A stretch of DNA of 41,110 nucleotides, taken from the sequence record MN850625.1. One strand, 5' to 3'. Every line of letters starts with the position of its first letter. Position 1 is the first letter of the stretch. Positions 1 to 41,110 of this stretch are shown piece after piece. Position numbers and translations under genes: made by a program. Origin of the DNA: Escherichia phage smaasur. The notes beneath the pieces are model-generated. The model saw nothing but the letters and a program-made list of their open reading frames with translations, searched no databases and was not told where the DNA came from.

Positions 1-558
1 ACCTTTGGCACCCTCAGTAGGCATGTAGTTGAAACTCGTCTGCGCAAGGCTGGACGCGAACTGCATTGCCGACACGCCGATGGCGCGGCCAAGGATAACA
101 CTATTGCTTGCTGGTTTCTGAGAGTAGCGCTGAGCGGCCACAGCCGTACTCACGATATCCTCAATGCTGGTGTCGAGGTTCATCTCCTGAATCTGCTCAT
201 TGAATCTGGTCTGCGCTTGGCTTTCCTGATTCTGTCGGTTGATATCCGTAACCGCCTCATCGACCGACGCACCTTCAATCCCGGCAGCGGCGGCGTTGTT
301 AATGCTCGCCCCGGCTGCGCGGTTCGCTTCCTTGTTGATGTTGTACAGGTCGGTGCCAGTCTGCTGCCGGAGCAGCCCACGCTGGAGGTTAACGGTATTG
401 ATACGCTGGCCCATTGCTTGCCACGTCTGCTTATTCAGCCGCTCATTCTCGGCTTGCACAGCTTTCATCTGCGCACGCTCAGCGCGTCCTTGCGCATACG
501 TGGTAATGAAAGAGTTCGTGGCATCAGCACCAGCTTTGGCGAAGACAGCCCAACCCAT
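1..558 (-). CDS. internal virion protein, N-terminal part (ATG at 558-556; gene runs past window start)
   Basis: Open minus-strand frame from ATG at 556-558 with no stop to position 1 (translation begins MGWAVFAKAGADATNSF...). Starts 2 nt after the tail tubular B stop. Position after tail tubular B matches the small internal virion protein slot of T7-like phages. Assignment is positional only. Confidence 0.45.
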   Translation of the reverse strand, partial: MGWAVFAKAGADATNSFITTYAQGRAERAQMKAVQAENERLNKQTWQAMGQRINTVNLQRGLLRQQTGTDLYNINKEANRAAGASINNAAAAGIEGASVDEAVTDINRQNQESQAQTRFNEQIQEMNLDTSIEDIVSTAVAAQRYSQKPASNSVILGRAIGVSAMQFASSLAQTSFNYMPTEGAKG

Positions 559-559
559 A

Positions 560-3010
560 TTAAATTCTCCGAACCTTGTTATAGAACTTGACGTAATAAC
601 CTAAACCTTGAATGTTCAGGTCGCCTGCTGTAGTGGACGTGACCACCATGCTGCTGGACTCAACCTCCAGACCCATACGCACTTTGAGGTGCGCACGCTT
701 CGCCAGAGTTGCTGACTCCAGACCAAGCTCCTGACTCGTGTATCGAATCGGGCTGGAGATGATGTTCAGTGCAGAGTACGCCCCACGGTCACTGGCCGTG
801 ATAGTGAAGAGGCTCGTGTACCGCAACGTGAAGTTGTAGTGCATGATGACCATCTTGTTCACGTCCATGTACGAACCGTCGCCGTTGAAGATTCTCGGCG
901 GCGTAGGGCTGAACGTTGCAGTGAATCGCAGGCCCACATACAGCGACGTGCTGCCGTACGAGGGTTGCAGGTACACACGTCGGTTCGCAGTGTCGATGGA
1001 CTTGATACCAACCTCGGCACCGATGTACTGACCGGACGGCACAACCGTGGTCATAAAGTCCCAGTTGCCATCAGCCAGATACCGGGCTTGGATGATATCC
1101 CACAGCGCTTTCTGGATTCCGTCAGCCGCGAACTGGATGTACGAGTTGTCCGTCGCCGGGTTGGTCACAGTCATGAGCTGACTGTAATCCGTTGCCGGGA
1201 GGAAACGCGCTGGGTCAGTCGGGTCTGGAGAATCTCGCATGGACAGCGTAAGCATGTTCATGTGGCCGTTCTGCTCAACCAGCATCACCAGCACTTCACG
1301 GACGAACCATGCGGCGTGGATAGTGCCGTACAGCTCCCAGCGATGCCAAGACGACAACACCTTCTCATCGCCTGACCAGAGGTACTCGTTCACGTATAGC
1401 GTGGACTTCTCAGTGGTCGAGCCGAACACTACGATGTTGTTCGTGGTGCTGGCAGAGATGTAGCTGTTAGCCCCTTCCAGATAAGTCGGCAGGTGGTCGG
1501 TCACATCCTGACTCACGTACTGCAAATCCGTGTAACCGGACGGTAGCATCTCCTTGACGGAGAATGAGCTGTTCGAGCGCGGGTACGAATAATACAGGCT
1601 GCGGCCAGAGGTGGTCGGCGCTACGCCAGTGTCCATCTGGTACGTCGAGGTCAACACGGCGGTGGCGTTGTTCGGCGTGAGGATTTGGTTACGTCCGGGG
1701 ATGACTGCTTGGTGTTCCTCACTGGCCAGAATCAGGTCAGAGTTGAACGGCACCCCGTACCGGAACGAAGCCCCGGCGAAGCTGGATGCTGTGAACTCAA
1801 TGCGGTCATCGTCCAGCACCTGCGTAACAGTGGTGCGGAAGAAGTTGTTCCGGTCATCCTTGTTGCTGGAACCCATTGTGATGTACGGGCCACTGAATAC
1901 AATCAGGCGACCTTGGAACGAGGCCAAGCCAGTAATACCCACGCCATTAGCATCAGTGAATGCAGGGATGGAATTGGTCAGGTCATCGCCAGCCAAGCGG
2001 CCCGGCCAGCTACCCTGAGAGAAAGTGTGCTGGTTCGCGGTAGATGAGGTCTTGAACACCAACGGCATGGTGCTTGGGTTAATCCCGGTCGGGGAGCCGT
2101 AGGCACCTTTCTCAACCCAGCGTGAGTCATTGTAACTCCACTGGAAGTATTGAGCGAAGCTGGCGTCGCCCACAGTCATGATGAACCCACCCGCCGCCGC
2201 AGGCAATCTCGCCGGGAGCTTAGTGGTAAGGTCTACCGTGTGGGTGTTGGATGCAATGGCATAGCTTGAACCAGTCGAGGTAGATACGTTCATGTCGGCA
2301 GCAGCTTCGGTACACTGGATGTACAGGTACGCACCATCCTGTGCCACGACTTCTATACCCTCAGCCCCGCCTACGTGCGTGTCGAGCTGAGACTTGAGCT
2401 GACCGACGATGTACTCCGGCGTGGACTCTTGTGAAGGGTTGCCCGTTGTTGATGAGCTTTCCGGCGTAGTATACGTTGCACTCACTGCGCCCAACTTGGT
2501 CTGCACTCGCACGGTGAACTGCTTACCGTAAGCACCAGCGATAACAAAATAGTAACCCCGGCGACCCGGATTCATTCGCGTTTCGTTCTCGATTAGCACG
2601 GGCAGCTTGGAACAGTTGGCAACGTACATGGTGTTGCCTACGGTCGTGAATACAATGTCGTCGGGGTTATTTGCGATGAGATAATTCGACTGACCCATGA
2701 ACTGGACAGTCTCTGTCTCCACGATGGAGGTCACGTACCCAGTCTTCGTGTTAACGATGAACGTGGTAATCCCCCACCCTAAGTTAGTGGTGTAGAACCG
2801 GAGGTGGCCAAAATTTCCAAGGCTCCATACAGTCGCGTTGGTCGAACTTACGTCACGACTTAGGCGAGTGCCGGGGCGCTTGCGCAGGCCACGAACGGTA
2901 TCGGAGGTCATGTTGACCTGTTCCTCAACCTGCGATAGCTGTCGGTCAGTATAGACCTGCTGGCTTACGCCGCCGAGGATGGATTTATACGAGCCTTGGT
3001 AAACTGGCAT
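560..3010 (-). CDS. tail tubular protein B (T7 gp12-like)
   Basis: 816 aa. N-terminus SILGGVSQQ resembles recalled T7 gp12 NLKGGISQQ; internal matches VGDASFAQYF (T7 VGDASKSADQYY), YYSYPRSNSSFS (T7 YFASPRSSFTS), DHLPTYL (T7 SHVPNYI). Lies directly after tail tubular A with a TAATG overlap. Confidence 0.85.
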   Translation of the reverse strand: MPVYQGSYKSILGGVSQQVYTDRQLSQVEEQVNMTSDTVRGLRKRPGTRLSRDVSSTNATVWSLGNFGHLRFYTTNLGWGITTFIVNTKTGYVTSIVETETVQFMGQSNYLIANNPDDIVFTTVGNTMYVANCSKLPVLIENETRMNPGRRGYYFVIAGAYGKQFTVRVQTKLGAVSATYTTPESSSTTGNPSQESTPEYIVGQLKSQLDTHVGGAEGIEVVAQDGAYLYIQCTEAAADMNVSTSTGSSYAIASNTHTVDLTTKLPARLPAAAGGFIMTVGDASFAQYFQWSYNDSRWVEKGAYGSPTGINPSTMPLVFKTSSTANQHTFSQGSWPGRLAGDDLTNSIPAFTDANGVGITGLASFQGRLIVFSGPYITMGSSNKDDRNNFFRTTVTQVLDDDRIEFTASSFAGASFRYGVPFNSDLILASEEHQAVIPGRNQILTPNNATAVLTSTYQMDTGVAPTTSGRSLYYSYPRSNSSFSVKEMLPSGYTDLQYVSQDVTDHLPTYLEGANSYISASTTNNIVVFGSTTEKSTLYVNEYLWSGDEKVLSSWHRWELYGTIHAAWFVREVLVMLVEQNGHMNMLTLSMRDSPDPTDPARFLPATDYSQLMTVTNPATDNSYIQFAADGIQKALWDIIQARYLADGNWDFMTTVVPSGQYIGAEVGIKSIDTANRRVYLQPSYGSTSLYVGLRFTATFSPTPPRIFNGDGSYMDVNKMVIMHYNFTLRYTSLFTITASDRGAYSALNIISSPIRYTSQELGLESATLAKRAHLKVRMGLEVESSSMVVTSTTAGDLNIQGLGYYVKFYNKVRRI

Positions 3011-19662: not shown

Positions 19663-20927
19663 CACATATCCTCGAATTGACATTTATCAGCATAGAAGTG
19701 AACCTGCGAACGGACGTTGGACGGACGCCCAGCTATCTGCCGCTTGTTCTTAGGAGTGCTCACGCCGCGCCGCGCTGCCAGCGCCGGGTCGTAAACGGAA
19801 CCCAGCATGACAATCACATCGGTCGCACCTTGGATACCAGTCTTGGAATCCTTGAGTGCGTCCAGCGCGGGGAACATATCGTCGGCACCGTCTGCGGATA
19901 CCTGAACCGTAGCCAGCGATACGAAGTCATGACGTACCGCCAGCTCACGTACCTCCTGCCAGAGCTGCTCGACTTGGCTGGCCTTGTTGCTGTTAGCGTC
20001 AGCCACAGACAACTTGAAGTTTGCCAGCATATCCCACACCACGATGCAGGGATTCATTGCTTCAATCACCTGCTCCGCTTTGGCCAACGTCGCGCCGTGC
20101 ATGTCCTTCACACGGATGATGTTGGCCGGGGCATTCAACGCCTTCGCGTACTTCTCATGCAGCTTCTTCCTGTCGGCACCCAGTGCTTTTAACTCCGGGA
20201 GCGTACAGCCGAGCGCCGCTTGGTAGATGCGCGGGATGATGTTGATGCCCTGCCCTTCGTTGTTGAACCATAAGATTGGTCGGCCCGGATACAGCTTCGC
20301 TGCTGTCGCCGCCATTCTCGTAAGGTTAAACGCGATGAAGGAAGTCTTGCCACTGTCGGGTCGAGCGCCGATTGCAACGGAGTCACCGGGGAGAAGTACC
20401 CTAACGCTATCTTGCAGACACATGAGACCGAACTTGAAACCTTGGTCATCATCTGTCCGATTGATAATATCAACCACATCATCATCAACGTAATCAGTGA
20501 CAGATGACTGCCCTCGACTGCGGCGTGCGCCTTCTGCAAGGCGGCCCAGCTCATAGATGAAATCAATCTCATCGCCATTGTCGTACCTCTGTGCAAGGAG
20601 GTTAACCTTGCCTGCTGTATCCAGCTCGACTAACTGGTCGATGATGCCTTCGGTCTGCTGCTTCGTCGGCTGGTATTCCTTGAGCTGCTGGCATAGCGAT
20701 TCGAACGCAGCCATCTGCTCCGGTGTACTCCCAGTCTTGAGCCGGACGTGTGTGCCTAGCGTTTCCATATCCACGTAGTCTGAATCCGGGAACGCCTCGA
20801 AGTATGAGCCATACGCACGCAGCATGTAGCCTGTGGTCTGACTCATAGTGTCCTCTGGAATGGCATGGCGCAGGGAGTTATACTTCCCGCGCTCACGCAT
20901 GACAGAGAGCAACAGTTTGTCTAACAC
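19662..20927 (-). CDS. DnaB-like (SF4) replicative DNA helicase
   Basis: 421 aa. Walker A GARPDSGKTS; Walker B-like IVVWDMLANF; RecA-like core. No zinc-finger or primase domain in this ORF. Confidence 0.8.
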   Translation of the reverse strand: MLDKLLLSVMRERGKYNSLRHAIPEDTMSQTTGYMLRAYGSYFEAFPDSDYVDMETLGTHVRLKTGSTPEQMAAFESLCQQLKEYQPTKQQTEGIIDQLVELDTAGKVNLLAQRYDNGDEIDFIYELGRLAEGARRSRGQSSVTDYVDDDVVDIINRTDDDQGFKFGLMCLQDSVRVLLPGDSVAIGARPDSGKTSFIAFNLTRMAATAAKLYPGRPILWFNNEGQGINIIPRIYQAALGCTLPELKALGADRKKLHEKYAKALNAPANIIRVKDMHGATLAKAEQVIEAMNPCIVVWDMLANFKLSVADANSNKASQVEQLWQEVRELAVRHDFVSLATVQVSADGADDMFPALDALKDSKTGIQGATDVIVMLGSVYDPALAARRGVSTPKNKRQIAGRPSNVRSQVHFYADKCQFEDM

Positions 20928-21650: not shown

Positions 21651-22099
21651 TCGTTATCCCACTCCGGCTCGTACTTAACTACACGTTTCATATTGACGCT
21701 ACCCACCACACGCAATACACGGGCAGTGCAGCCGTACGTTCTGGCCAATCTCTCAGCCTCGCGCCGCGCCGACTCTTCCGTAGTGTGCTCAACCTTCGGC
21801 GGCGTAGAGCCACCTACAACTACGCACATGAACCTGCCCCGGCTCGGCTCGGCCACAGGTTCAGGCTCGCCTATCAGCACGGTGTTGGAGGTTAGCCAGT
21901 CAGATTTGTAGCGCCCTATCTCCGGCTCCGTTCTGCGGTATCCGTTCTCTGACATGTACCAATGCACGAGGTATTTGATATCACCTTGCGGAGCATCTGG
22001 CCGTGCATAAATTACAATGCCTTCTGAGCCACGGCGCGTACCACAGTTGGAGCCAACCATTCGTATGCGGTCGCCCATTGCATAGGTCTTATCTACCAT
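21647..22099 (-). CDS. hypothetical protein with N-terminal GDRIR motif (small paralogous family)
   Basis: 150 aa; begins MGDRIRMVGSNCGTRRGSEGIVIYAR, paralogous pattern to the genes at 19309..19662 and 24363..24626. Confidence 0.5.
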   Translation of the reverse strand: MVDKTYAMGDRIRMVGSNCGTRRGSEGIVIYARPDAPQGDIKYLVHWYMSENGYRRTEPEIGRYKSDWLTSNTVLIGEPEPVAEPSRGRFMCVVVGGSTPPKVEHTTEESARREAERLARTYGCTARVLRVVGSVNMKRVVKYEPEWDNE

Positions 22100-22296
22100 T
22101 TAATCCACCCCCGGTTCTGGCCTACACTCAGGCTCAACTGCATCAGACCCCAGCCTACCAGCATACCGAGCAGCGTGCCCAGTGTTGAGGTGGCTGACTC
22201 ACCGACCGCAGGGATAAGCACCAGTGATGCAAGACCCACCCACAATGCTCCCCAAATAATTATCAGAAGCAGGAACAACAATATTACTTTGAGCAT
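22093..22296 (-). CDS. small membrane protein (two predicted transmembrane helices)
   Basis: Start placed at ATG 22296 (MLKVILLFLLLIIIWGALWVGLASLVLIPAVG...), preceded by GGAGGAGA. The ORF track's longer frame begins further upstream and includes the repeated ATGAAAGTAACTGT element at 22318-22332. Confidence 0.45.
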   Translation of the reverse strand: MLKVILLFLLLIIIWGALWVGLASLVLIPAVGESATSTLGTLLGMLVGWGLMQLSLSVGQNRGWIKW

Positions 22297-22317
22297 ATCT
22301 CCTCCGATGTTGTGCAA

Positions 22318-22332
22318 TACAGTTACTTTCAT
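22318..22332 (-). repeat. repeated element ATGAAAGTAACTGTa (copy 3, 14/15 match)
   Basis: On the minus strand, 22 nt upstream of the ATG at 22296 of the small membrane protein gene. Confidence 0.55.
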
Positions 22333-22364
22333 GGTGGCATCTCTCACGAAATGCCACGAGTAAG

Positions 22365-22607
22365 TCACTTAATTGTTTCGACCTTGGACAAATCATACTG
22401 CCCGTCAGCCAGCCGTTCCGGGTACAGGAACTGCGCCCGGCCATCGGTAACACCTTCGAAGTGCAGCATCTCAGGATTGTATTCGTCCCGACCTTTGAAG
22501 ATGAACTTGCCTGCATTCACTTCCAGTGCGACCGAACAGAACACACCGCCGCTCAGCTTGTACGCGGAACCGACTTCAAGTTTGCTTTCGTCTTTGATGA
22601 TAGTCAT
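22365..22607 (-). CDS. hypothetical small protein
   Basis: 80 aa ORF in the early gene block; no motif recognised. Confidence 0.45.
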   Translation of the reverse strand: MTIIKDESKLEVGSAYKLSGGVFCSVALEVNAGKFIFKGRDEYNPEMLHFEGVTDGRAQFLYPERLADGQYDLSKVETIK

Positions 22608-26837: not shown

Positions 26838-27369
26838 AGTTATTTCTCCAGTTATTGGCTATTTTCAGGTGGATAGTGAACCCATTGTGACGCGCCGTAC
26901 AGTCTGCACTCAGTGGCATTGATTGGCTTGTCGGATTCACTACCCTGAAAAATCGCCCCGCCCATTTCGCGCTGTGGATATTGTCTGCATCCACTCTCAG
27001 GAGTCTTCCAGCAGTCCGTCGCGTATCTTGCTCACCGTTGCCAGCTAACAAGCCGTTTGACTACCCACCCGCTATACTCCGCGCCTTATAAGACGTTCGG
27101 GATTGTACTGATACTGCGCTGCGTCTATCGCGCTTCTCCGTTCCCATGCACCGGGCGCTACCCCTATTGCCTTTCGGCGGTGCCTCACCCAGTTCCAACC
27201 TGCGGCGGATACCCAGTGAGCCGTGACACTACGCGGCCAGTTTGCGTTCACTCAGAGCAGGATGCTTTCCATCCTTTCAACTCGGTGCTGATTTCATCAT
27301 ATCTGAATCAGCTTGTCAACTACTTTTTACTTCTGACTGACTGGCTTGCTACCCGTCAATCTGGAGCGT

Positions 27370-27398
27370 ATTACAGCATACTCATTTCACCTTGTCAA
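27370..27398 (-). promoter_or_regulatory. candidate host sigma70 early promoter (minus strand TTGACA-17-TGTAAT)
   Basis: On the minus strand: TTGACA (plus 27393-27398), exact 17-nt spacer, TGTAAT (plus 27370-27375). Points toward the early genes. Confidence 0.5.
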
Positions 27399-27506
27399 CC
27401 GTTTTATTCAGCGCCCATTCTGAGATGAATAACCCGTACCAGTTCGCCTGCGTGTGTTTTAACGTCTTTATCAATGACTGTTTAGCTTGCTGGCTGACGT
27501 GGAAGC

Positions 27507-27535
27507 ATTACAGCATAGTGAGCTTGCCTTGTCAA
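27507..27535 (-). promoter_or_regulatory. candidate host sigma70 early promoter (minus strand TTGACA-17-TGTAAT), second copy
   Basis: Same architecture: TTGACA (plus 27530-27535), 17-nt spacer, TGTAAT (plus 27507-27512). A weaker third candidate is TTGACA (27313-27318) with TGAAAT (27290-27295). Confidence 0.5.
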
Positions 27536-27779
27536 TACACTCCAGATTGTTAAAGAGCATGGCTAACCGTCTAGCCCACCGTGTAACGATGTTCTGTTAC
27601 CCGGCGATGAGAATTACAGCAAATCACAAAGAGCATTGCAAGTATTATTTTCACTGAATACCTCAAATAGTGGATAAGTTATTGTATTCATTGATAATAA
27701 ATATTTGATTGAATAGGTTATTGCATAGCTTACATACAGCAGAATAACCGTAAATAAATCCTTTTAAATCAATGAGTAA

Positions 27780-27794
27780 ATGAAAGTAACTGTT
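27780..27794 (+). repeat. repeated element ATGAAAGTAACTGTT (copy 4, inverted, at the edge of the T-depleted terminus tract)
   Basis: Exact 15-mer on the plus strand, opposite to all genes; 18-nt identity with copy 1 (ATGAAAGTAACTGTTGTG). Sits at the junction between an AT-rich segment (27640-27780) and the T-depleted tract. Confidence 0.6.
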
Positions 27795-27799
27795 GTGTA

Positions 27800-28380
27800 T
27801 AGCAGTAGCGATACGCAGCGTAAGCGACGCAGCACGCAGTGCGATAGCGGAGCGCGGAGCGGAGCGAATGAGATACGGAGTAGCGAATGAGTGAACGCGA
27901 ACGGATAGCAAGTATCAGAGTGTTACACAGTACACACAGCAGACACACAGCGACGCGATGAGCTGGAGGAGCTGGAGCGCAGGCGGTAGCGCACAGAGTA
28001 CACCGTACACAGTACCGCACAGACACACACAGCAAGCGAGCGCAGGCAGCAGCAGCAACGCACAGAGCAAGCGAGCAAAAGAGATAGATAGCCCCGCGCC
28101 CAGCCACCGACACACAGCAGCACCGCACAGCACAGCGCAGGCCAGCGCAGGCGCGTCCAGTGGTAGCAGTGGCGCAGCGCACAGCAGCAGGACACAGCAC
28201 CGCACAGCACGCCACACGGCAGACGATGAAACGGGCACGCGCGAGCTGTTACCGCACGCACGCGAGCAATACCGCACGCGCAGGCACACGCGCATAATGC
28301 GCACACGTCATGCACGCGCACGCGCACAGGCGTACGGGGGCGCAGGCGCTCCTTCGGGTCGAGGGAGGCCCACGCACAAA
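27800..28380. repeat. strongly T-depleted, degenerate short-repeat tract at the presumed genome terminus
   Basis: Plus strand is almost entirely A/C/G with reiterated CACAG/GCGCAG/CAGCAC units; my hand count gives about 8% T over 27841-28380, and 28021-28080 has none. Lies between the last late gene (endolysin, ends 28435) and the early promoters, where T7-like phages carry terminal repeats and short-repeat arrays. Confidence 0.6.
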
Positions 28381-28434
28381 TAGTCAATTTTCAAGCCGGG
28401 AAACGCCTGTTCTATGTCACAGCTTTCAATGCCC

Positions 28435-28971
28435 CTATAACGTCGCACAGTAAGCGCTACAGCGTTTTGCACGAGCAACCAAGGCATCCCTATACCGAAC
28501 GATTGTCGGGGCTGTAGAAGCCTTTAGGAACGCAATACGAAGGTCACAGATGGATGCTGCTGCGGAGTGAGGTTCCAGACGTTTGGCTGCTGCCACGGTT
28601 GCAGGGCCAATAACCCCGTCTTGTGCAACGCCGCATACCCGCTGTAGAGCTTTCGCCGCACGGCTGATACCGGAGTTGACACCGTAGTCGAACACGGCAC
28701 ATGCAATCGCAGGGTGTAGCTCGTCACCTTTGATGGGGTCGAAATACTCGGCCCGGTAGATAGCGTTGGCTTGCTCTTTGGTGAGCTGTTTGACAGGCAC
28801 ACAAATAGAGCCACCAAGCCCAGTAGGGACACCACAAATTCGGCCATCCAGTTTGCCATCACGAGCATCGCTAATTCCATGATTCGTTTCCCCTCCAGTG
28901 TCACCGGGCAGCTTGGTGTACCCGCCTTCTGCCAGCCCGGTGAACTTCATACAGATTTCAAAGTTAGTCAT
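28435..28971 (-). CDS. endolysin, glycoside hydrolase family 108-like with C-terminal peptidoglycan-binding region
   Basis: 178 aa. N-terminal FTGLAEGGYTKLPGDTGGETNHGIS matches the GH108 signature (EGGY...DxGGxTxxGI) as I recall it. Last gene before the terminus region. Confidence 0.7.
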   Translation of the reverse strand: MTNFEICMKFTGLAEGGYTKLPGDTGGETNHGISDARDGKLDGRICGVPTGLGGSICVPVKQLTKEQANAIYRAEYFDPIKGDELHPAIACAVFDYGVNSGISRAAKALQRVCGVAQDGVIGPATVAAAKRLEPHSAAASICDLRIAFLKASTAPTIVRYRDALVARAKRCSAYCATL

Positions 28972-29357
28972 TACATCCCCATAATGCTTGTGATAAAGGA
29001 CTGGAGCGCTGTGAGGTCGCCAGCCTTAATTGCCAGATACACACCGCTGCACAGGGATGCGGTTAACAGGCACCATTTGACGGCATGTGCTGCCGCCGTA
29101 AACAACTTACCGATATGGCTCATAGTTCTCTGGATATCCTGAATCTGCTCGACCACCAAGAGCTGCTGCTGAACCTGCTGCCAGCGCGAGTCGTTCTCAG
29201 CCAGCTTCGTGAGCATCGCAGCGTCGCCTTTCTCAAGGTTAGCGATTTGCACTTCGTGTTTGTCGAGGCGTAGTTCTACGGTCTGCATACGAGCCTCCAC
29301 TGCACCCATACGCGAGTGGATGTTAGGAGTCGGCTCCTTTCGTTTTGCTTCCGTCAT
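28971..29357 (-). CDS. lysis-cassette membrane protein (holin candidate): N-terminal coiled-coil region plus C-terminal hydrophobic segments
   Basis: 128 aa with strong GAGGAAGG ribosome-binding site. Hydrophobic stretches LFTAAAHAVKWCLLTASLCSGVYLAI and LTALQSFITSIMGM. Sits between the spanin-like gene and the endolysin. Holin role is inferred from position and topology only. Confidence 0.4.
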   Translation of the reverse strand: MTEAKRKEPTPNIHSRMGAVEARMQTVELRLDKHEVQIANLEKGDAAMLTKLAENDSRWQQVQQQLLVVEQIQDIQRTMSHIGKLFTAAAHAVKWCLLTASLCSGVYLAIKAGDLTALQSFITSIMGM

Positions 29358-29814
29358 CTCTTACCTTCCTCTTCCACGGAGATGGTACAAACCACATTAC
29401 CAAACCAAGAATACACGTAAGGCCCATGCCAAATGCCCACAATAAGCTGCGTGGGTCGCTCTGTGAGACGATAACAGTCTTAGCCTGTACGTTTCCTTGG
29501 GTCATCTGAGACCCCTGCTTAGAAGCGTTTACAGAGCCTCCTGAGACGTCCTTGACGGTCGTAGCGTTACTACCCTGTTTAGCGGTATCCACTTTCGCGT
29601 TACCTGATACGTCACCGACTTCGGTTTCGTCGGACTGTTTCGCAGTCACACCGATGCCTTGCTTCGTGTTCTCTGCACCTACCTGTGCCGTCAGTTCCGG
29701 CTTGTTGGGAGAGACAGCCGAAGTTACAGCAGACAGTGCGCTAGTTGCGGAGCAGCCCGTCAAAGTCAGAGACAATGAGAGGACTGCCCCGGCCAATAGC
29801 CGAGACAGTTTCAT
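29323..29814 (-). CDS. unimolecular-spanin-like protein (outer-membrane lipoprotein signal plus C-terminal transmembrane helix)
   Basis: 163 aa. N-terminal signal with lipobox LTLTGC; C-terminal hydrophobic helix LLWAFGMGLTCILGLVMWFV followed by basic residues; middle region has periodic T/K/Q/G repeats. Confidence 0.5.
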   Translation of the reverse strand: MKLSRLLAGAVLSLSLTLTGCSATSALSAVTSAVSPNKPELTAQVGAENTKQGIGVTAKQSDETEVGDVSGNAKVDTAKQGSNATTVKDVSGGSVNASKQGSQMTQGNVQAKTVIVSQSDPRSLLWAFGMGLTCILGLVMWFVPSPWKRKVRDDGSKTKGADS

Positions 29815-29824
29815 ACGCTACCTC

Positions 29825-30010
29825 TTATGCGTCAATGGCAGCCGTAGCTGCTTTAACACGGTCAATGTACACCTGATGCTCAGCCAGCAGGTCAGTGTCA
29901 GCCGTATTCAGGTGGTAGTCTTCCGTGTACACGTTGAGGTATTTGGCCAGCATGTTGCAGGCCGCCACCAGTTCCGCACGCTCAGCGGCGGTAGAAGTTG
30001 CTAAGGACAT
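29825..30010 (-). CDS. hypothetical small protein
   Basis: 61 aa ORF with GGGAGA ribosome-binding site; no hydrophobic segment. Confidence 0.4.
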   Translation of the reverse strand: MSLATSTAAERAELVAACNMLAKYLNVYTEDYHLNTADTDLLAEHQVYIDRVKAATAAIDA

Positions 30011-30021
30011 AAAATCTCCCG

Positions 30022-30693
30022 TTAGGAAAGTGTAATGCCAGTGATAACACCACCAGCGACAGTGAAGGTTACGGTATCGGTGTACGTGCCAGTCGGCTCT
30101 ACACCAGTGAGGGTGGCACCGTTCGCTACGCCAGCAATGGTCGCAGGAAGTGTACCGTACGTGATGACACCGTTGGACACGGTGAAGGTCGCGTTACCGA
30201 TGGGGGTGCCAGCGGAGTTGCGAATCTGGATGTTGCTGCCACTGGCGATTACAGCCGTGGTTGCTGGCAGCCGGGCGGCGACCAGTACACCGTTGCTGTC
30301 CACATAGGAGGTGGAGGTTACACCAGCCGCGCCATTCACGTTCTGTACAGAGATGGAGTCGTTGTTGGACTTCATACCGACAGTAGCAGGCAGGGCGACA
30401 GTGACCGACTCACCATCCACAGCGAAGGTGGCAGCCTTCTGCACAGTACCGTTAGCGTTCACCACAGTGGTTTCAGCGCCGTCTGCGACAATAGCAGAGC
30501 CTTCCGGTACAGTGGTGTAGCCAGCGTCTACCAGAGCCGTTAGGAGCTGCGTAATAGCCGCGTCGATTGGCGCAGCCTGCTCAGCCGTCAGTGTCTTCGT
30601 GTTGTTCACGAAGCGTTGGGTCAGATTGGCGGCGATGTTGGCACGGTAGCCAATATCGTACCGCTGCTGATTAGTGATAGAAATCAAAGACAT
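30022..30693 (-). CDS. Thr/Gly/Val/Asn-rich beta-repeat protein downstream of terminase large subunit (fibre- or adhesin-like)
   Basis: 223 aa; start overlaps the terminase large subunit stop (TAATG). Repeats such as TFTVSNGVITYGTLPATIAGVANGATLTGV and TVTFTVAGGVITGITLS. Function unknown. Confidence 0.45.
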   Translation of the reverse strand: MSLISITNQQRYDIGYRANIAANLTQRFVNNTKTLTAEQAAPIDAAITQLLTALVDAGYTTVPEGSAIVADGAETTVVNANGTVQKAATFAVDGESVTVALPATVGMKSNNDSISVQNVNGAAGVTSTSYVDSNGVLVAARLPATTAVIASGSNIQIRNSAGTPIGNATFTVSNGVITYGTLPATIAGVANGATLTGVEPTGTYTDTVTFTVAGGVITGITLS

Positions 30694-32453
30694 TAGCGGA
30701 TTCTCCGACGAGTGCCACGGACACGCTTATGACTGCGCCACTTCGAGTCGTCGTACCCCATAGGGTTGGCAACAAACTCACGAGCGGCGGCCACTTCACG
30801 CTTTTGGGCCTCTTCATGTTCGTCTTGCTGGAGTACCTCGGCGTGGAGATACACGGCAGCGGATAGGGTTTCAATGCGGTCATCGTGCGGGATGGAGCCT
30901 TTGTCCTGCGTCAAGTTCTGCATCTGCCAGAACAGGCTGTATTCCCGGCCACCGTTGTTCATGGCCCGGCACAGGCGCAGGTCTTCCTCAACAACCGACC
31001 AGTGGATTACCACGCGGTGGCGCTGGAGGATAGGACTCAACCGATTGATGATACGCACTTCTTTCTGGCCGCTGGAGTAAATACCCTCACAGCCGATTGT
31101 CAGTCCTTGACGCTTAATCTCACCACGGTACATGTTGGTCACGGCACCGTGGCCCATGTTGTCCTCAATGGTGATGTGCTGGACACCCAGCTCGTGGCAC
31201 CACTCTACCGCCGCCTTGATGTTCTCTTCCGTCTGGCCGCCGTGGTAGACGTGCATACCGATGACGTGGATAAACGGGCCGATAGAAGCTGTGGCGAAGA
31301 GAACGGATTCGTCCGACCCACCACCAGCAGGGTCAAGAAACGCCTTGGTATTCGTGAATGGTACATACGTCTCAGAGAAGTCAGCGGCCAGATATAGCTG
31401 GGCGCGAGCGAGTGGGAAGTCCATTGGCAGCTCGGCCAAGTGACGCGAATGATTCGACCAGTGCAGATACTCCGGCGCAGACTGCGGCGAGCCGTGGAAG
31501 AAGATAACATCCCGGATATGCAGAGTCTGTTTCAGTGCGTCTGACAGTGATGTGTCCAGCATGAACTGTAGCTGGAAGCCTGCCTGCTGGTAGTCTCGTT
31601 CGTTCTGTAGCTGCTTCTCTTCGGAGTAACGCTGAGGGTCAGTCTGCGCACCACGGTTCCCAAGGATACCGTAACCAGTACGCAATTCAGGGTGGCCATC
31701 CATCTTCTGCTTAATCCACGGGGCCAGACAGCCGCCGTAGCGTTCTTCTTCCTCAACCGTTGGGAAACGACCGGGCCAGATGCGAACGTCGAAGCCACGC
31801 TGCGGGAGCGTGTTGTAGATGGAGTCCTGAGTCTGTGGCGTGCCGAGGTACAGAATCTCTGCACCGTCGTTGGCGATAGCCGCGAACTCTTTGGTCAGGG
31901 TGTTGATACGGGCGCGGTTGGCAGGAGAGCTACCGTTACTGGTAGTCTCCACGTCATCGGCAATCAACAGCGATACGTGGTTCCCCTGCAACTGGCCGAA
32001 GATACCGACCGCTTTGACAGAGGGCTGTTTGTCAGGAATACGAAATGCGTGGTGTACGTCGAAACCGTCTGTATAAGAGGTACGTGCGCCAGCGCGAGTT
32101 TCAGGGCGCAGCCATTCCAGTCTGTCCCATTGCATAATGGCAGACACGATGGCGTGCGAGAGCGTACCCGCATAATCGTCAGAACCGGATACCAGCAGCA
32201 CGGTGGCGTTAGGCATCTGGACGAACTCATACAGGGCACGGGCAATGCCGATGGTGGACTTAGCCTCACCGCGCTGAGCCATGACGCACTTGTTCTTGAG
32301 CGTCCGGTCGGCCATGTAGCGGCCAATATCGAGCTGCATTTCAGTGAGGTCAAAGCCCAGCCATGCGAAGTAGTCATGCAGGAACAGCGGGAAGTTGTTC
32401 TCGTAATGGGCGCGAACAATTCCTGCCATCACCATGCGGCGTTGTAAATCCAT
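30693..32453 (-). CDS. terminase large subunit (T7 gp19-like)
   Basis: 586 aa, the same length as T7 gp19. [26 protein letters not shown] matches T7 [45 protein letters not shown] matches [32 protein letters not shown] matches ALAHDDRLDALALGI. Confidence 0.95.
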   Translation of the reverse strand: [586 protein letters not shown]

Positions 32454-38238: not shown

Positions 38239-40931
38239 TCCTGCATACCTGCGAGTAGAGTTTGGATGTAATACTGCTTGCGTTCATCCTGAGACAGCTT
38301 GAACGCCGGGGTATTGGACAGTGCCTGCAACGCCTGCTCCCGGTCGCCGACGCGGATTGCATCAGCCAGCTTGCCATAAGCACCGCCAGAGCGATACCAA
38401 TCGGAGCCAGCCTGATAGCCCATCTGCATCATGAACTGGAACTGAGCGTCTTTGTCACGGCTCCAACCGAGCGCTGCTGCCTGACCGGGCATCTGCCGGG
38501 CAACCATGTTCGTGTGGTTCACGAACGTGTCGTGGATAGTGCGCGGAGACCACTCCGTGCCGCCCTTCATACCAGAAGCCTGACCTTCTGCAAAGTACGG
38601 GCTGCGGTTAGAGATGCCGACACCGTTGGTCTGGACACCAGTGCTGTCACGGTACGTCTGGTTACGGATACCCTCGAACTCAATCAGCTTGCCACGAGCC
38701 TGCAACATGTAGGACTCTTCCACACCTGCGGTATTGACACCGTTGACGCGGATACCGATGTTGCTGTTCTTATCGACAAAGAGTTTCCCGTCGCCGTAGA
38801 CTTCGTTGTTCGCGGTAGCCGCCGCCCGGTCATCTTCACGGATGCGCTCCTGAATAGCCTGCGGAGTAATCCGGTAGCTGTTCGGAGATACGTCACCTGT
38901 CTTGTTGAAGTATTGAACGTTGAGCGAACCATCGGGCATAAACGAGTACGACGTCTCGAAACCTTCTGGTGCCTTGCTCTGGTCAAGTGAGGCGATAGCA
39001 CGACCGATACGGTCAGGTGCCACGTCAGCAGGCAAGCCAAGCATAGACTGAACAGTTTGGTTTCTCGGAGCGATAAGCACACTGCCGGGGCTGAAAGTAG
39101 ACTCACCCACACGCAGCACGCGGTTTGCCAGCTTCGCAGACGCGAGCGCTTCCATACCGTCTTTCGTGATGTTCGGGTTCTTGAGGACAACAGCTTGCAA
39201 CTCTTCGCGGTACGCGGCAGACACCTCCGACATTTCCTGCGCAGCAGTAATGTCACCAGATGCGACGCGAGCTTGGAACAGGTTGCGCTGAGTGTCTGAG
39301 AACAGACCAGCCAGACCTTGCCAAGTGCGAGAGAAGAAGCCCTGTGCTTCAAGGGAGCCTACCACACTGTTAACGTCAGATTGACGCTGAGTGAGGATTT
39401 GGGATTTCTGAGCTGGGGTTAAGCCAGCGTAATCCTGCTGCTGCTTAATGTAACCCTGACCCGCTTGGTTGATGGTACGGCCAGCCTTAATCTGCTCGCG
39501 CATGTACACCATCTTCTCTTGGTTTTCCTCTGACAGACCAGACAGGAGCTTAGTCCATGCGGTCTTGTCACCCTGATTCTCGGCCACGGTTACGCGGTCA
39601 ATCAGCCCGGTCACTGTAGCGGCAGCGTCCGGGTTCATCTCGTCCACTGTGCCGAAGTTCGATAGGGCTGGCTCAATCAGTTTCGCAGCAGACTTGTACG
39701 CAGAAGGGAAGCCAGTCTGTGCGCCAACTTGCAGCAGGTCGAATGCCACGGAGCTTGCCGTCGCGCCCGGCTGCTTCATGCGAGCTTTGATGAATGCGTC
39801 AGCACCATCCTGCTCACTCGCACCCTGCTGGAGCATGTACGTCTGGTTCCCGGTGGCGTATGCCTGACCGAGCTGGTTGGCCTTCGCTTGCTTGGCGTAG
39901 TCCTTGTAATAGCCCTCAATAGCAGAGCTGTAACCAGACGCAGAGATGAGTTTGTTATCTGCGAGCTGCTGGAGGATACCAGTGTACGTCTTAGGGTCTA
40001 CGTCTCCGAAGACTGCCTGACGTGCATTGAGCTGGCCGTACTGCTCCAGCAACCCCATGTTGTCCTGAACCTCGGTGCGGTTCTTCGATTCACGAATCTG
40101 GCCTTGGAGTTTGGCCAAATCATCAGCAGGCAAGTCGTTGAACATCCCGGAGTTAACGGCGGTCTCCACCGGGGTGCGGAGGTCTTGCGACAGCATGTTG
40201 CTCATCATGGACACGACTTGAGTGCGCCGGGTTTCCAGCGGCAACTTCTCATCGGCCAGAATGGATTTGGCCCATGCCATCGTTGCAGCAGTAGCGTTAG
40301 CGTACGCGCCGCCGTCACCCGTTGCCTTGGCCTGAGCAGCCAGAGTAACGAGAGTGTTACCCTGTGCATTGTACATAGAAGCACGCTGCTCAATCAGGTA
40401 CTTGCCGTGCTGAGCAGCCTGCGTACGAATCAGCGTATTGCTGAACGTGAGCTGATTCTCCAGCAGCGCCTTACGACCATTCATGGTCATACCATCAGTG
40501 TTGTTGAAGATGCTCTGCGTCTTCTGGTCAACAACTTTCAGGAAGTCCTGCGGAGACATTTTCGCGTACTCGGTCATGTTGGCCGAGATATCAGAGGCAG
40601 CCTGAGCCATCTGCATACGCTTGTACTGGTCGTTATAACCAGCCTTGTGGAACTCGGCAGTCAGCCAGTTGGAGTCCAAATCCTCCACAGCTTGGCCGGA
40701 CGCTGCCGCGTTCGCACCTTTCAGATACTCTTCCTCAACCGCACGCTCAGTAACCTGACCAGCGATGTTGCTGGCCATGTTCATGATGCGCTGGATGGAC
40801 TCAGTAGGAAACGTGTCAATGCGAGTATCGCGGCCTGCGAGACTGAACGGAGTCTGAGCCTGCTGCACATTTGGTACGCCCTGCTGCGCAGCGTTAAGGT
40901 TAGCGCCACGCTGGTCACGCATAGTTGCCAT
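38235..40931 (-). CDS. internal virion protein B (T7 gp15-like by position)
   Basis: 898 aa with GGGAGC ribosome-binding site, upstream of the 1033-aa protein. As I recall, phiKMV gp36 is also 898 aa and has a C-terminal lysozyme domain; that is recollection, not verified here. Confidence 0.6.
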   Translation of the reverse strand: MATMRDQRGANLNAAQQGVPNVQQAQTPFSLAGRDTRIDTFPTESIQRIMNMASNIAGQVTERAVEEEYLKGANAAASGQAVEDLDSNWLTAEFHKAGYNDQYKRMQMAQAASDISANMTEYAKMSPQDFLKVVDQKTQSIFNNTDGMTMNGRKALLENQLTFSNTLIRTQAAQHGKYLIEQRASMYNAQGNTLVTLAAQAKATGDGGAYANATAATMAWAKSILADEKLPLETRRTQVVSMMSNMLSQDLRTPVETAVNSGMFNDLPADDLAKLQGQIRESKNRTEVQDNMGLLEQYGQLNARQAVFGDVDPKTYTGILQQLADNKLISASGYSSAIEGYYKDYAKQAKANQLGQAYATGNQTYMLQQGASEQDGADAFIKARMKQPGATASSVAFDLLQVGAQTGFPSAYKSAAKLIEPALSNFGTVDEMNPDAAATVTGLIDRVTVAENQGDKTAWTKLLSGLSEENQEKMVYMREQIKAGRTINQAGQGYIKQQQDYAGLTPAQKSQILTQRQSDVNSVVGSLEAQGFFSRTWQGLAGLFSDTQRNLFQARVASGDITAAQEMSEVSAAYREELQAVVLKNPNITKDGMEALASAKLANRVLRVGESTFSPGSVLIAPRNQTVQSMLGLPADVAPDRIGRAIASLDQSKAPEGFETSYSFMPDGSLNVQYFNKTGDVSPNSYRITPQAIQERIREDDRAAATANNEVYGDGKLFVDKNSNIGIRVNGVNTAGVEESYMLQARGKLIEFEGIRNQTYRDSTGVQTNGVGISNRSPYFAEGQASGMKGGTEWSPRTIHDTFVNHTNMVARQMPGQAAALGWSRDKDAQFQFMMQMGYQAGSDWYRSGGAYGKLADAIRVGDREQALQALSNTPAFKLSQDERKQYYIQTLLAGMQE

Positions 40932-40933
40932 GA

Positions 40934-41110
40934 TTAGCTCCCAAAGATGTTACCAGAGCCATAACCCAAGTAACGATTAGAATCATACTGCGCTGGCACA
41001 GGGTTAAATTCCCCGGCCTTCTGCATCCAATTGGTGGTGCTGTAACTGGCAGACGTTCCGAGATTGTCGAACGTCGATGCTGTAGCACCTGAGCCACCAG
41101 TCGTACCAGC
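40934..41110 (-). CDS. C-terminal end of an upstream virion protein gene (gene begins beyond window end)
   Basis: In-frame minus-strand reading with no stop from 41110 to the TAA at 40934-40936 (...NRYLGYGSGNIFGS*). Probably the small internal virion protein; may be the same gene whose 5' end is at 1-558 if the source contig is circularly permuted. Confidence 0.4.
   Translation of the reverse strand, partial: AGTTGGSGATASTFDNLGTSASYSTTNWMQKAGEFNPVPAQYDSNRYLGYGSGNIFGS

Follow-up and report, generated by a model that had tools for sequence, protein, structure and literature searches.

A coiled-coil protein as holin candidate beside a T1 gp11-type u-spanin in a Bonnellvirus lysis cassette

Introduction

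Phages related to T7 scatter their lysis genes, and for gp11 of phage T1, a unimolecular spanin (u-spanin), membrane fusion has been demonstrated. The system considered here is the lysis cassette of Escherichia phage smaasur (sequence record MN850625.1; the whole stretch of 41,110 nucleotides (nt) is called the window below), in which a 163-residue lipoprotein of the T1 gp11 type, a 128-residue coiled-coil protein and a soluble endolysin are encoded side by side. In the survey of Kongari et al. (2018; PMC6139136), Table 5 lists phages J8-65 and LIMEzero as members of the T1 gp11 family, and the supplement enters J8-65 as '163-aa USP'; according to the same authors, the u-spanins of these two phages are unusually long, and they are the only gp11-family phages without a pinholin and a signal-arrest-release (SAR) endolysin. 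One paper on Bonnellvirus mentions the endolysin only (PMC8402661).

As for holins, Wang, Smith and Young (2000, summarised in PMC4411677) list as criteria small size, at least one transmembrane domain (TMD), adjacency to the endolysin gene, a highly charged hydrophilic C-terminus, a dual-start motif and the lethal, triggerable formation of holes through which endolysin is released. The cassette of phage KP34 has been described as spanin-holin-endolysin, and the KP34-like holins have about 83 residues and one TMD. In the holin components SPP1 gp24.1 and PBSX XhlA, a coiled coil at the N-terminus is combined with a TMD at the C-terminus, and both proteins act with a partner that has two TMDs (PMC6316719).

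On balance we favor, if only slightly, the view that the 128-residue protein of the window is a tail-anchored holin, or an essential holin component, with XhlA-like architecture in a three-step Bonnellvirus lysis cassette. This view is drawn from synteny and topology and is as yet unproven. It is in this middle gene that the novelty of the cassette lies, and not in the u-spanin.

Results

Organization of the Lysis Cassette

The window is a whole Bonnellvirus genome in circularly permuted form, and all of its genes are on the minus strand. Read 5' to 3' along that strand, the terminase large subunit (TerL) is followed by genes for a 223-residue and a 61-residue protein, the 163-residue u-spanin, the 128-residue protein and the 178-residue endolysin, after which comes the non-coding genome end. 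The cassette proper consists of three genes:

29323..29814, minus strand: u-spanin of the T1 gp11 family, 163 residues, assigned from PHROG 1804 and homology to T1 gp11
28971..29357, minus strand: holin candidate, coiled-coil protein of 128 residues, phrog_35530, assigned from its PHROG match, the AlphaFold2 model and its conserved position
28435..28971, minus strand: endolysin with GH108 and PG_binding_3 domains, 178 residues, soluble (non-SAR), assigned from PF05838 and PHROG 315

The gene of the 128-residue protein begins 35 nt before the u-spanin gene ends, and its stop codon overlaps the ATG of the endolysin by 1 nt. Neither of the two upstream open reading frames (ORFs) is a product of chance, since the 163-residue protein matches PHROG 1804, 'Rz-like spanin', with E=1e-36, and the 128-residue protein matches phrog_35530, a family of unknown function, with E=3e-62 and has 32 conserved homologues. 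Both ORFs are found on the minus strand where an earlier note on this DNA, written from the letters of the sequence, had placed them, and the cassette does follow TerL as stated there, with the genes for the 223-residue and the 61-residue protein in between. The note had also seen no small canonical holin next to the endolysin; in agreement with this, hydropathy identifies the 128-residue protein as the only membrane-capable product of the cassette besides the u-spanin, and no holin family of Pfam, NCBIfam or PHROG matches anywhere in the cassette.

The endolysin is assigned by matches to PF05838 (GH108, E=1.5e-21), to PG_binding_3 and to the endolysin family PHROG 315. It has no SAR or signal sequence, its N-terminus MTNFEICMKFTGLAEGGY not being hydrophobic and its maximal Kyte-Doolittle hydropathy over 19 residues (KD19) reaching 1.08; the endolysins of T1 and of Phimunavirus CB5, scored alike, do have SAR-like hydrophobic N-termini. 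As a soluble GH108 enzyme with neither SAR domain nor signal sequence, it needs a hole-forming holin.

Sequence and Predicted Structure of the 128-Residue Protein

Four features of the 128-residue protein bear on its interpretation:

29355-29380, minus strand: start region at M1 with a Shine-Dalgarno-like sequence, conserved start
29286..29298, minus strand: in-frame internal start at M24, preceded by GGAGG-N5, possible second translation start
29151..29309, minus strand: predicted cytoplasmic coiled coil, residues 17-69, from heptad register analysis
29028..29075, minus strand: short hydrophobic helix W95-I110 between K94 and K111, with KD16 (the same scale over 16 residues) 1.72 and KD19 1.56

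In the AlphaFold2 model, which was based on an 11-sequence alignment, a helix of residues 13-112 is followed by a second one of residues 115-127, with a mean predicted local distance difference test score (pLDDT) of 83. The heptad register is unbroken from M17 to V69, and its core includes the polar residues H34, D45 and N55, which are invariant in the close family. W95-I110 is the sole hydrophobic stretch of the protein; small residues form a stripe along it (S101/G105/A109), and after K111 comes the invariant pair G113-D114. The coiled-coil-like N-terminal region and the hydrophobic C-terminal region described in the earlier note are recognizable in the heptads of residues 17-69 and in this helix. 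A Foldseek search of BFVD with the model returned nothing at E<=0.001, as is expected of a single long helix.

Shine-Dalgarno-like sequences precede both M1 and M24. At M24, GGAGG-CTCGT-ATG is kept in all nine Bonnellvirus sequences (9/9), and LIMEzero has AGGAGG-N5-ATG; the motif is partly forced by conserved Glu-Ala codons, and M24 is missing in distant members of the family. RefSeq starts the gene at M24 in J8-65 (gp46) and in LIMEzero, yielding a product of 105 residues, while other records start at the upstream ATG. The long form starting from M1 is real, because residues 1-23 are conserved as protein, LIMEzero included, and the N-terminal motif YRRxGxxEARV is conserved also in distant relatives that lack M24. 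Judged by these motifs, M1 and M24 could be a dual-start arrangement.

The closest architectural analogue of the 128-residue protein is XhlA, and its membership in that family is unproven. Its match to the XhlA model (PF10779) stays below the gathering score (16.1 vs 34.7 bits), and such sub-threshold matches are found for 8 of 11 family members, the best with E=0.0019. When the family profile was compared by hhalign with that of 19 bona fide XhlA proteins, the probability was 90.6% and E=1.3e-6, but the match spans no more than 37 columns, all in the N-terminal coil; the score of 39.8 compares with 11±2 (maximum 19.5) for column-shuffled profiles and 22 for the reversed profile. This profile signal may be that of a generic coiled-coil motif. 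The paper on Acidovorax AP1 was dropped as a further holin comparison, since its subject is not a holin but an endolysin that has its TMD at the C-terminus.

Distribution and Genomic Context of the Family

Among 50,697 cultured phage records searched, the phrog_35530 protein is present in 19 Bonnellvirus and 2 LIMEzero records only, and every annotated record of these 21 calls it 'hypothetical protein'. A word-indexed search with the 128-residue protein likewise returned close relatives only. When 1.84 billion representatives were searched exhaustively with a HMMER profile, two close clusters and about eight divergent ones of full length were found, and beyond these, generic coiled-coil proteins only. 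The divergent members have about 127 residues and the same architecture at 21-32% identity, match phrog_35530 with E=1e-10 to 1e-17, and keep both the tail motif K-x16-[KRHQ]-x-G-D and the small residues at i, i+4 and i+8 of the helix; one distant member has a weak PHROG 'holin' match (E=0.053). Scans for related loci with the single proteins P0034 and P0036 gave no result.

The contigs of the divergent members are fragments of T7-type podoviruses. In three metagenomic contigs, L011, L014 and L017, TerL is followed by the gene for the 127-residue protein and then by one for a soluble GH24 lysozyme (PF00959), the start of which overlaps or abuts the preceding stop; in L011 and L014, a short homologue of the 223-residue protein lies between TerL and the 127-residue gene. 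The IMG/VR contig L021, of 42 kb, has the 127-residue gene between the C-terminal end of a gp11-like u-spanin (…TGNVQAETV…WVLPAPAW…) on its upstream side and a soluble GH24 enzyme downstream. In five divergent contexts the family gene is thus found directly 5' of a soluble endolysin, of the GH108 family in Bonnellvirus and LIMEzero and of the GH24 family in L011, L014, L017 and L021; wherever a context was recovered, the gene adjoins or overlaps the endolysin start. As the pairing is kept across GH108 and GH24, the association outlasts the replacement of the endolysin family. Among the called genes of the divergent members' cassettes, no other TM-containing one was seen.

A gene for a very basic protein of 41 residues follows the lysozyme in L011 (5869-5994) and L014 (3611-3736), and a similar one of 42 residues precedes the 127-residue gene in L017 (1430-1558). 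These proteins (…KKLGEH…A.AQL.AIE.NKHK) match phrog_3684 in part. No spanin is visible in the contigs L011, L014 and L017.

The slot of the middle gene is occupied differently elsewhere. In CB5, the sole gp11-type cassette that was inspected gene by gene, the u-spanin is 52% identical to that of the window, and it is followed by an 89-residue protein with two TMDs, annotated as holin, and by a SAR lysozyme. In KP34-like records, a 'holin' feature is annotated at the u-spanin match.

A T1 gp11-Type u-Spanin and the Absence of Rz/Rz1

Two features define the membrane attachment of the 163-residue protein:

29752..29814, minus strand: lipoprotein signal peptide with lipobox L18-T-G-C21 and Ser22 at position +2, from the sequence and a regex/hydropathy scan
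29386..29445, minus strand: C-terminal transmembrane helix, residues 124-143, KD19 2.01, Hessa sum -1.18

Lipoproteins without an Asp at position +2 are sorted to the outer membrane. The N-terminus of the protein, MKLSRLLAGAVLSLSLTLTG|C21, comprises a basic n-region, a hydrophobic h-region and the lipobox LTGC, of which L18, G20 and C21 are invariant across the alignment of the LIMEzero, CB5 and T1 u-spanins. Because Ser22 and not Asp is found at +2, sorting to the outer membrane is to be expected. The C-terminal helix is followed by a basic tail, KRKVR, which is predicted to be cytoplasmic. T1 gp11 is 34% identical (E=2e-14, pairwise BLASTP), with the lipobox, the invariant motif TAQVGAENTKQ and the C-terminal TMD all aligned, and J8-65 gp45, named 'Rz-like spanin' in RefSeq, is 99.4% identical. 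By tblastn, 639 phage records were found to contain relatives, among them those of KP34-like Klebsiella phages, of Pectobacterium phimunaviruses and of T1 itself. The 163-residue protein is, by homology and sequence features, a T1 gp11-family u-spanin, and as such has been published and annotated already, so that it is not new. In its periplasmic domain, at residues ~58-105 (29500-29640, minus strand), a unit of about 21 residues, DVSGNAKVDTAKQG..TVK, is repeated; the alignment counts two copies in the window, three in LIMEzero and fewer in T1 and CB5. It is these extra copies that account for the unusual length of the J8-65-type and LIMEzero u-spanins.

A lipobox scan of the window in all six frames, which considered every possible start and called for a basic n-region, a hydrophobic h-region and the lipobox Cys at positions 13-35, yielded no credible lipoprotein besides the 163-residue protein; the remaining matches are implausible or fall on the non-coding strand or into the non-coding region at the genome ends. 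Nor did any ORF of the minus strand, when all were scanned for hydropathy, show the i-spanin architecture, in which a periplasmic coiled coil comes after an N-terminal TMD. That a conventional two-component Rz/Rz1 pair is encoded elsewhere and the 163-residue lipoprotein is not the spanin can, on these two scans and on the homology to T1 gp11, scarcely be believed; going by the sequence, this reading is effectively refuted already. The earlier note had proposed a lipoprotein signal, a C-terminal transmembrane helix and, from both, the u-spanin topology of T1 gp11. Lipobox and helix are found as proposed, the protein is homologous to gp11 and matches PHROG 1804, and the embedded Rz/Rz1 pair, which the note had named as the finding that would tell against it, was searched for in all frames and is absent.

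Neighboring Genes and Genome Ends

Three genes lie upstream of the cassette:

30693..32453, minus strand: TerL, from the annotation of the J8-65 homologue
30022..30693, minus strand: 223-residue gene between TerL and cassette, phrog_9732, function unknown, without TMD
29825..30010, minus strand: 61-residue conserved gene directly 5' of the u-spanin gene, function unknown, soluble, without TMD

Over the region 28300-30800 of the window, Escherichia phage J8-65 (Autographiviridae, Bonnellvirus) is 98% identical along the full length, and wastewater coliphages of the same genus are about 80% identical. The 223-residue protein has conserved ends (N-terminal MS.I…TNAQ…, C-terminal …TVTFTV.GG.IT.I.LS) and a highly variable middle; its homologues in the same position have 150 residues in LIMEzero, 97 in L011 and 40 in L014, and Pantoea phage ROV85 has a gene of 102 residues as the counterpart by position. 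At the position of the 61-residue gene, LIMEzero (ORF52) and CB5 (gp55) have genes of the same size, and Pectobacterium phage DNA spanning this gene and the start of the spanin gene is 78% identical.

The circular permutation divides an internal-virion-protein gene, the homologue of J8-65 gp37, between the two ends of the window (1-560 and 40929-41110). The genome ends and the terminal-repeat region fall within a non-coding stretch of about 1.6 kb, ~26,840-28,435, that separates the endolysin stop codon from the first early gene. This stretch yields numerous spurious ORFs rich in Cys and Ala; tandem repeats were looked for in it, and nothing notable was found.

Discussion

What can be concluded about the function of the 128-residue protein? 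Compared with the general holin criteria, it has small size, adjacency to the endolysin gene, with the 1-nt overlap, and a TMD that is predicted and marginal. Several observations weigh against a role as holin. The helix W95-I110 is short, with 16 residues, and its KD19 of 1.56 is just below the usual cutoff of 1.6, with a Hessa value of +3.3 kcal/mol; four annotated holin proteins scored in the same way, SPP1 gp24.1, SPP1 gp26, the T1 holin and the CB5 holin, have KD19 values of 1.66-2.07, so that the helix lies at or below their range, and in some members of phrog_35530 it is weaker still (1.2-1.4). There is no charged hydrophilic tail, the last 17 residues, GDLTALQSFITSIMGM, being amphipathic with a net charge of -1. 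In Pfam, NCBIfam and PHROG no holin family matches the protein, the sub-threshold hits being coiled-coil noise and the weak one to XhlA. As to the latter, the stretch of the XhlA model that is involved is also matched, with scores that reach or nearly reach the threshold, by 'RMDxLE' repeat proteins that have no TM segment, and XhlA-type proteins need a partner with two TMDs, of which the cassette has none.

It is in the early region that a protein with two TMDs is present, and this counts as a further point against the 128-residue protein acting as the holin:

22093..22368, minus strand: early 2-TMD protein, homologue of J8-65 gp11 ('hypothetical'), 79 residues from MKVTV with a likely start at ~22332, from hydropathy

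The most serious rival explanation holds that this early protein is the true holin, or an XhlB-like partner, with the 128-residue protein serving as a lysis accessory, be it as a co-holin like XhlA, as an antiholin or in the regulation of timing. Its two TMDs are strong (KD19 up to 2.89), it occurs in 16 Bonnellvirus records, the lysis genes of T7-like phages are scattered in any case, and SPP1 gp24.1 and XhlA, of the same architecture as the 128-residue protein, are not lethal alone and need a 2-TMD partner (PMC6316719). Nevertheless, we regard this explanation as rather improbable. No match to the early protein was obtained for LIMEzero or for 3 of the 19 Bonnellvirus records in which the 128-residue gene is present, and there is no gene for it on the short metagenomic cassette contigs with the pair of 127-residue protein and soluble endolysin; moreover, the early protein has neither a charged C-terminal domain nor a family match, and a position in the early region, about 6.5 kb off across the genome end, would be odd for a holin. 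The early protein itself may be a superinfection-exclusion or host-takeover protein, if it is not an alternative or partner holin.

A lesser chance goes to the idea that the 128-residue protein has no part in lysis, being for instance a membrane-associated coiled-coil factor in assembly or host takeover, and that the endolysin reaches the wall by another route. While its marginal hydrophobicity and the absence of homology to any characterized protein would agree with this, we consider it unlikely in view of the gene's place between those for spanin and endolysin, of its tight and repeated coupling to two unrelated endolysin families by overlapping stop and start codons, and of the soluble endolysin, which requires some holin and for which there is no better candidate. 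Less probable again, and in our estimation very unlikely, is a holin encoded by an ORF of up to 126 codons that is embedded in the endolysin gene in the +1 frame (28524..28904, minus strand). The ORF has a TM-like segment, MAEFVVSLLGLVALFVCLS, with a KD19 of 2.31 and an ATG after GGAGGGG, and it is open, with the segment kept, in 9 of 9 Bonnellvirus sequences; the endolysin gene of S. aureus phage 187, said to have been described by Loessner in 1999, reportedly provides a precedent for an embedded holin. However, amino-acid identity is 68-79% in the alternative frame as opposed to 89-91% in the main frame, diversity at four-fold sites is not reduced inside the overlap (0.18, compared with 0.15 outside), and in LIMEzero the frame is interrupted by stops and lacks a TMD. 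Nor is there a PHROG match, and long alternative-frame ORFs with TM-like stretches are frequent in this genome (e.g. 38684..39352 and 20189..20596). The hydrophobic residues arise because a T at the third position of main-frame codons becomes the second position in the +1 frame. On the tests of synonymous sites and alternative-frame conservation we have rejected this ORF, which is probably a spurious by-product of codon usage.

If the 128-residue protein is indeed the holin, lysis might proceed as follows. Made late in infection, the protein would be inserted into the inner membrane as a tail anchor via W95-I110, with the N-terminus inside and the C-terminus outside (N-in/C-out). This orientation would fit the positive-inside rule, as the flank on the N-terminal side is basic and the short outside tail has its net charge of -1. 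The long N-terminal coiled coil would remain in the cytoplasm and drive oligomerization, and the S101/G105/A109 face would pack helix on helix; for all three, the membrane topology, the oligomerization and the hole-forming activity, we infer the behavior of the protein from its sequence and setting. On reaching a critical concentration, triggering would open holes big enough for a folded enzyme, through which the GH108 muramidase, translationally coupled to the holin candidate by the stop/start overlap, could exit and degrade the peptidoglycan. With the wall gone, the u-spanin, held in the outer membrane by the lipidated Cys21 and in the inner membrane by its C-terminal TMD, would bring the two membranes together and fuse them.

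More tentatively, and with somewhat less confidence than we place in the holin role as such, we suggest that phrog_35530 may represent an unrecognized class of holins in phages of Gram-negative bacteria. Its members, of about 127 residues, would be tail-anchored N-in/C-out by one short TMD resembling a glycine zipper and would have a long coiled coil in the cytoplasm. On their own, with no need of a 2-TMD partner, they would release soluble endolysins of the GH108 or GH24 family; they may be regulated by the long and short products of M1 and M24, and would be either remote relatives or convergent analogues of Gram-positive XhlA. A holin role for phrog_35530 would complete the lysis pathway of the genus Bonnellvirus, and the truncated annotation of 105 residues for J8-65 and LIMEzero in RefSeq would be corrected. 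It would also add a tail-anchored topology with a large cytoplasmic coiled coil that is unusual for a Gram-negative phage, and provide a model, tractable in E. coli, for the formation of large holes by such a protein. To our knowledge, this holin topology is known only as one half of the XhlA/XhlB systems of Bacillus phages.

How, then, does the cassette compare with the described systems? With T7, in which gp17.5 is the holin, gp18.5/18.7 are Rz/Rz1 and gp3.5 is the amidase, it has in common the family Autographiviridae and the division of lysis into three steps, by holin, endolysin and spanin. It differs from T7 in having no two-component embedded spanin, in the clustering of its lysis genes after TerL, which are scattered in T7, and in an endolysin that is a muramidase rather than an amidase. 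The T1 gp11 family shares the lipobox-Cys signal, the C-terminal TMD, the TAQVGAENTKQ motif and the place in the lysis cassette; the protein of the window is longer, with 163 residues compared with about 134 in typical members, and, unlike most members, is accompanied by a soluble endolysin and no pinholin. A pinholin/SAR-endolysin system would likewise differ, since the endolysin of the window has no N-terminal SAR domain.

The KP34-like phages (Drulisvirus) and CB5 have the same gene order after TerL and u-spanins with 34-52% identity, but in the window the middle gene encodes the unrelated 128-residue coiled-coil protein, whereas that of CB5 encodes the 89-residue 2-TMD holin; the endolysins differ as well, with an N-terminal SAR-like domain in CB5 and a soluble GH108 enzyme in the window. 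For the middle gene itself, the nearest parallel is XhlA and SPP1 gp24.1, which are likewise small, with an N-terminal coiled coil, a single C-terminal TMD, a gene adjoining that of the endolysin and a possible in-frame dual start. Compared with XhlA, the 128-residue protein has about 35 extra residues between coil and TMD, and its cassette belongs to a phage of a Gram-negative host, includes a u-spanin and has no 2-TMD partner like XhlB or gp26, the one 2-TMD protein being that of the early region.

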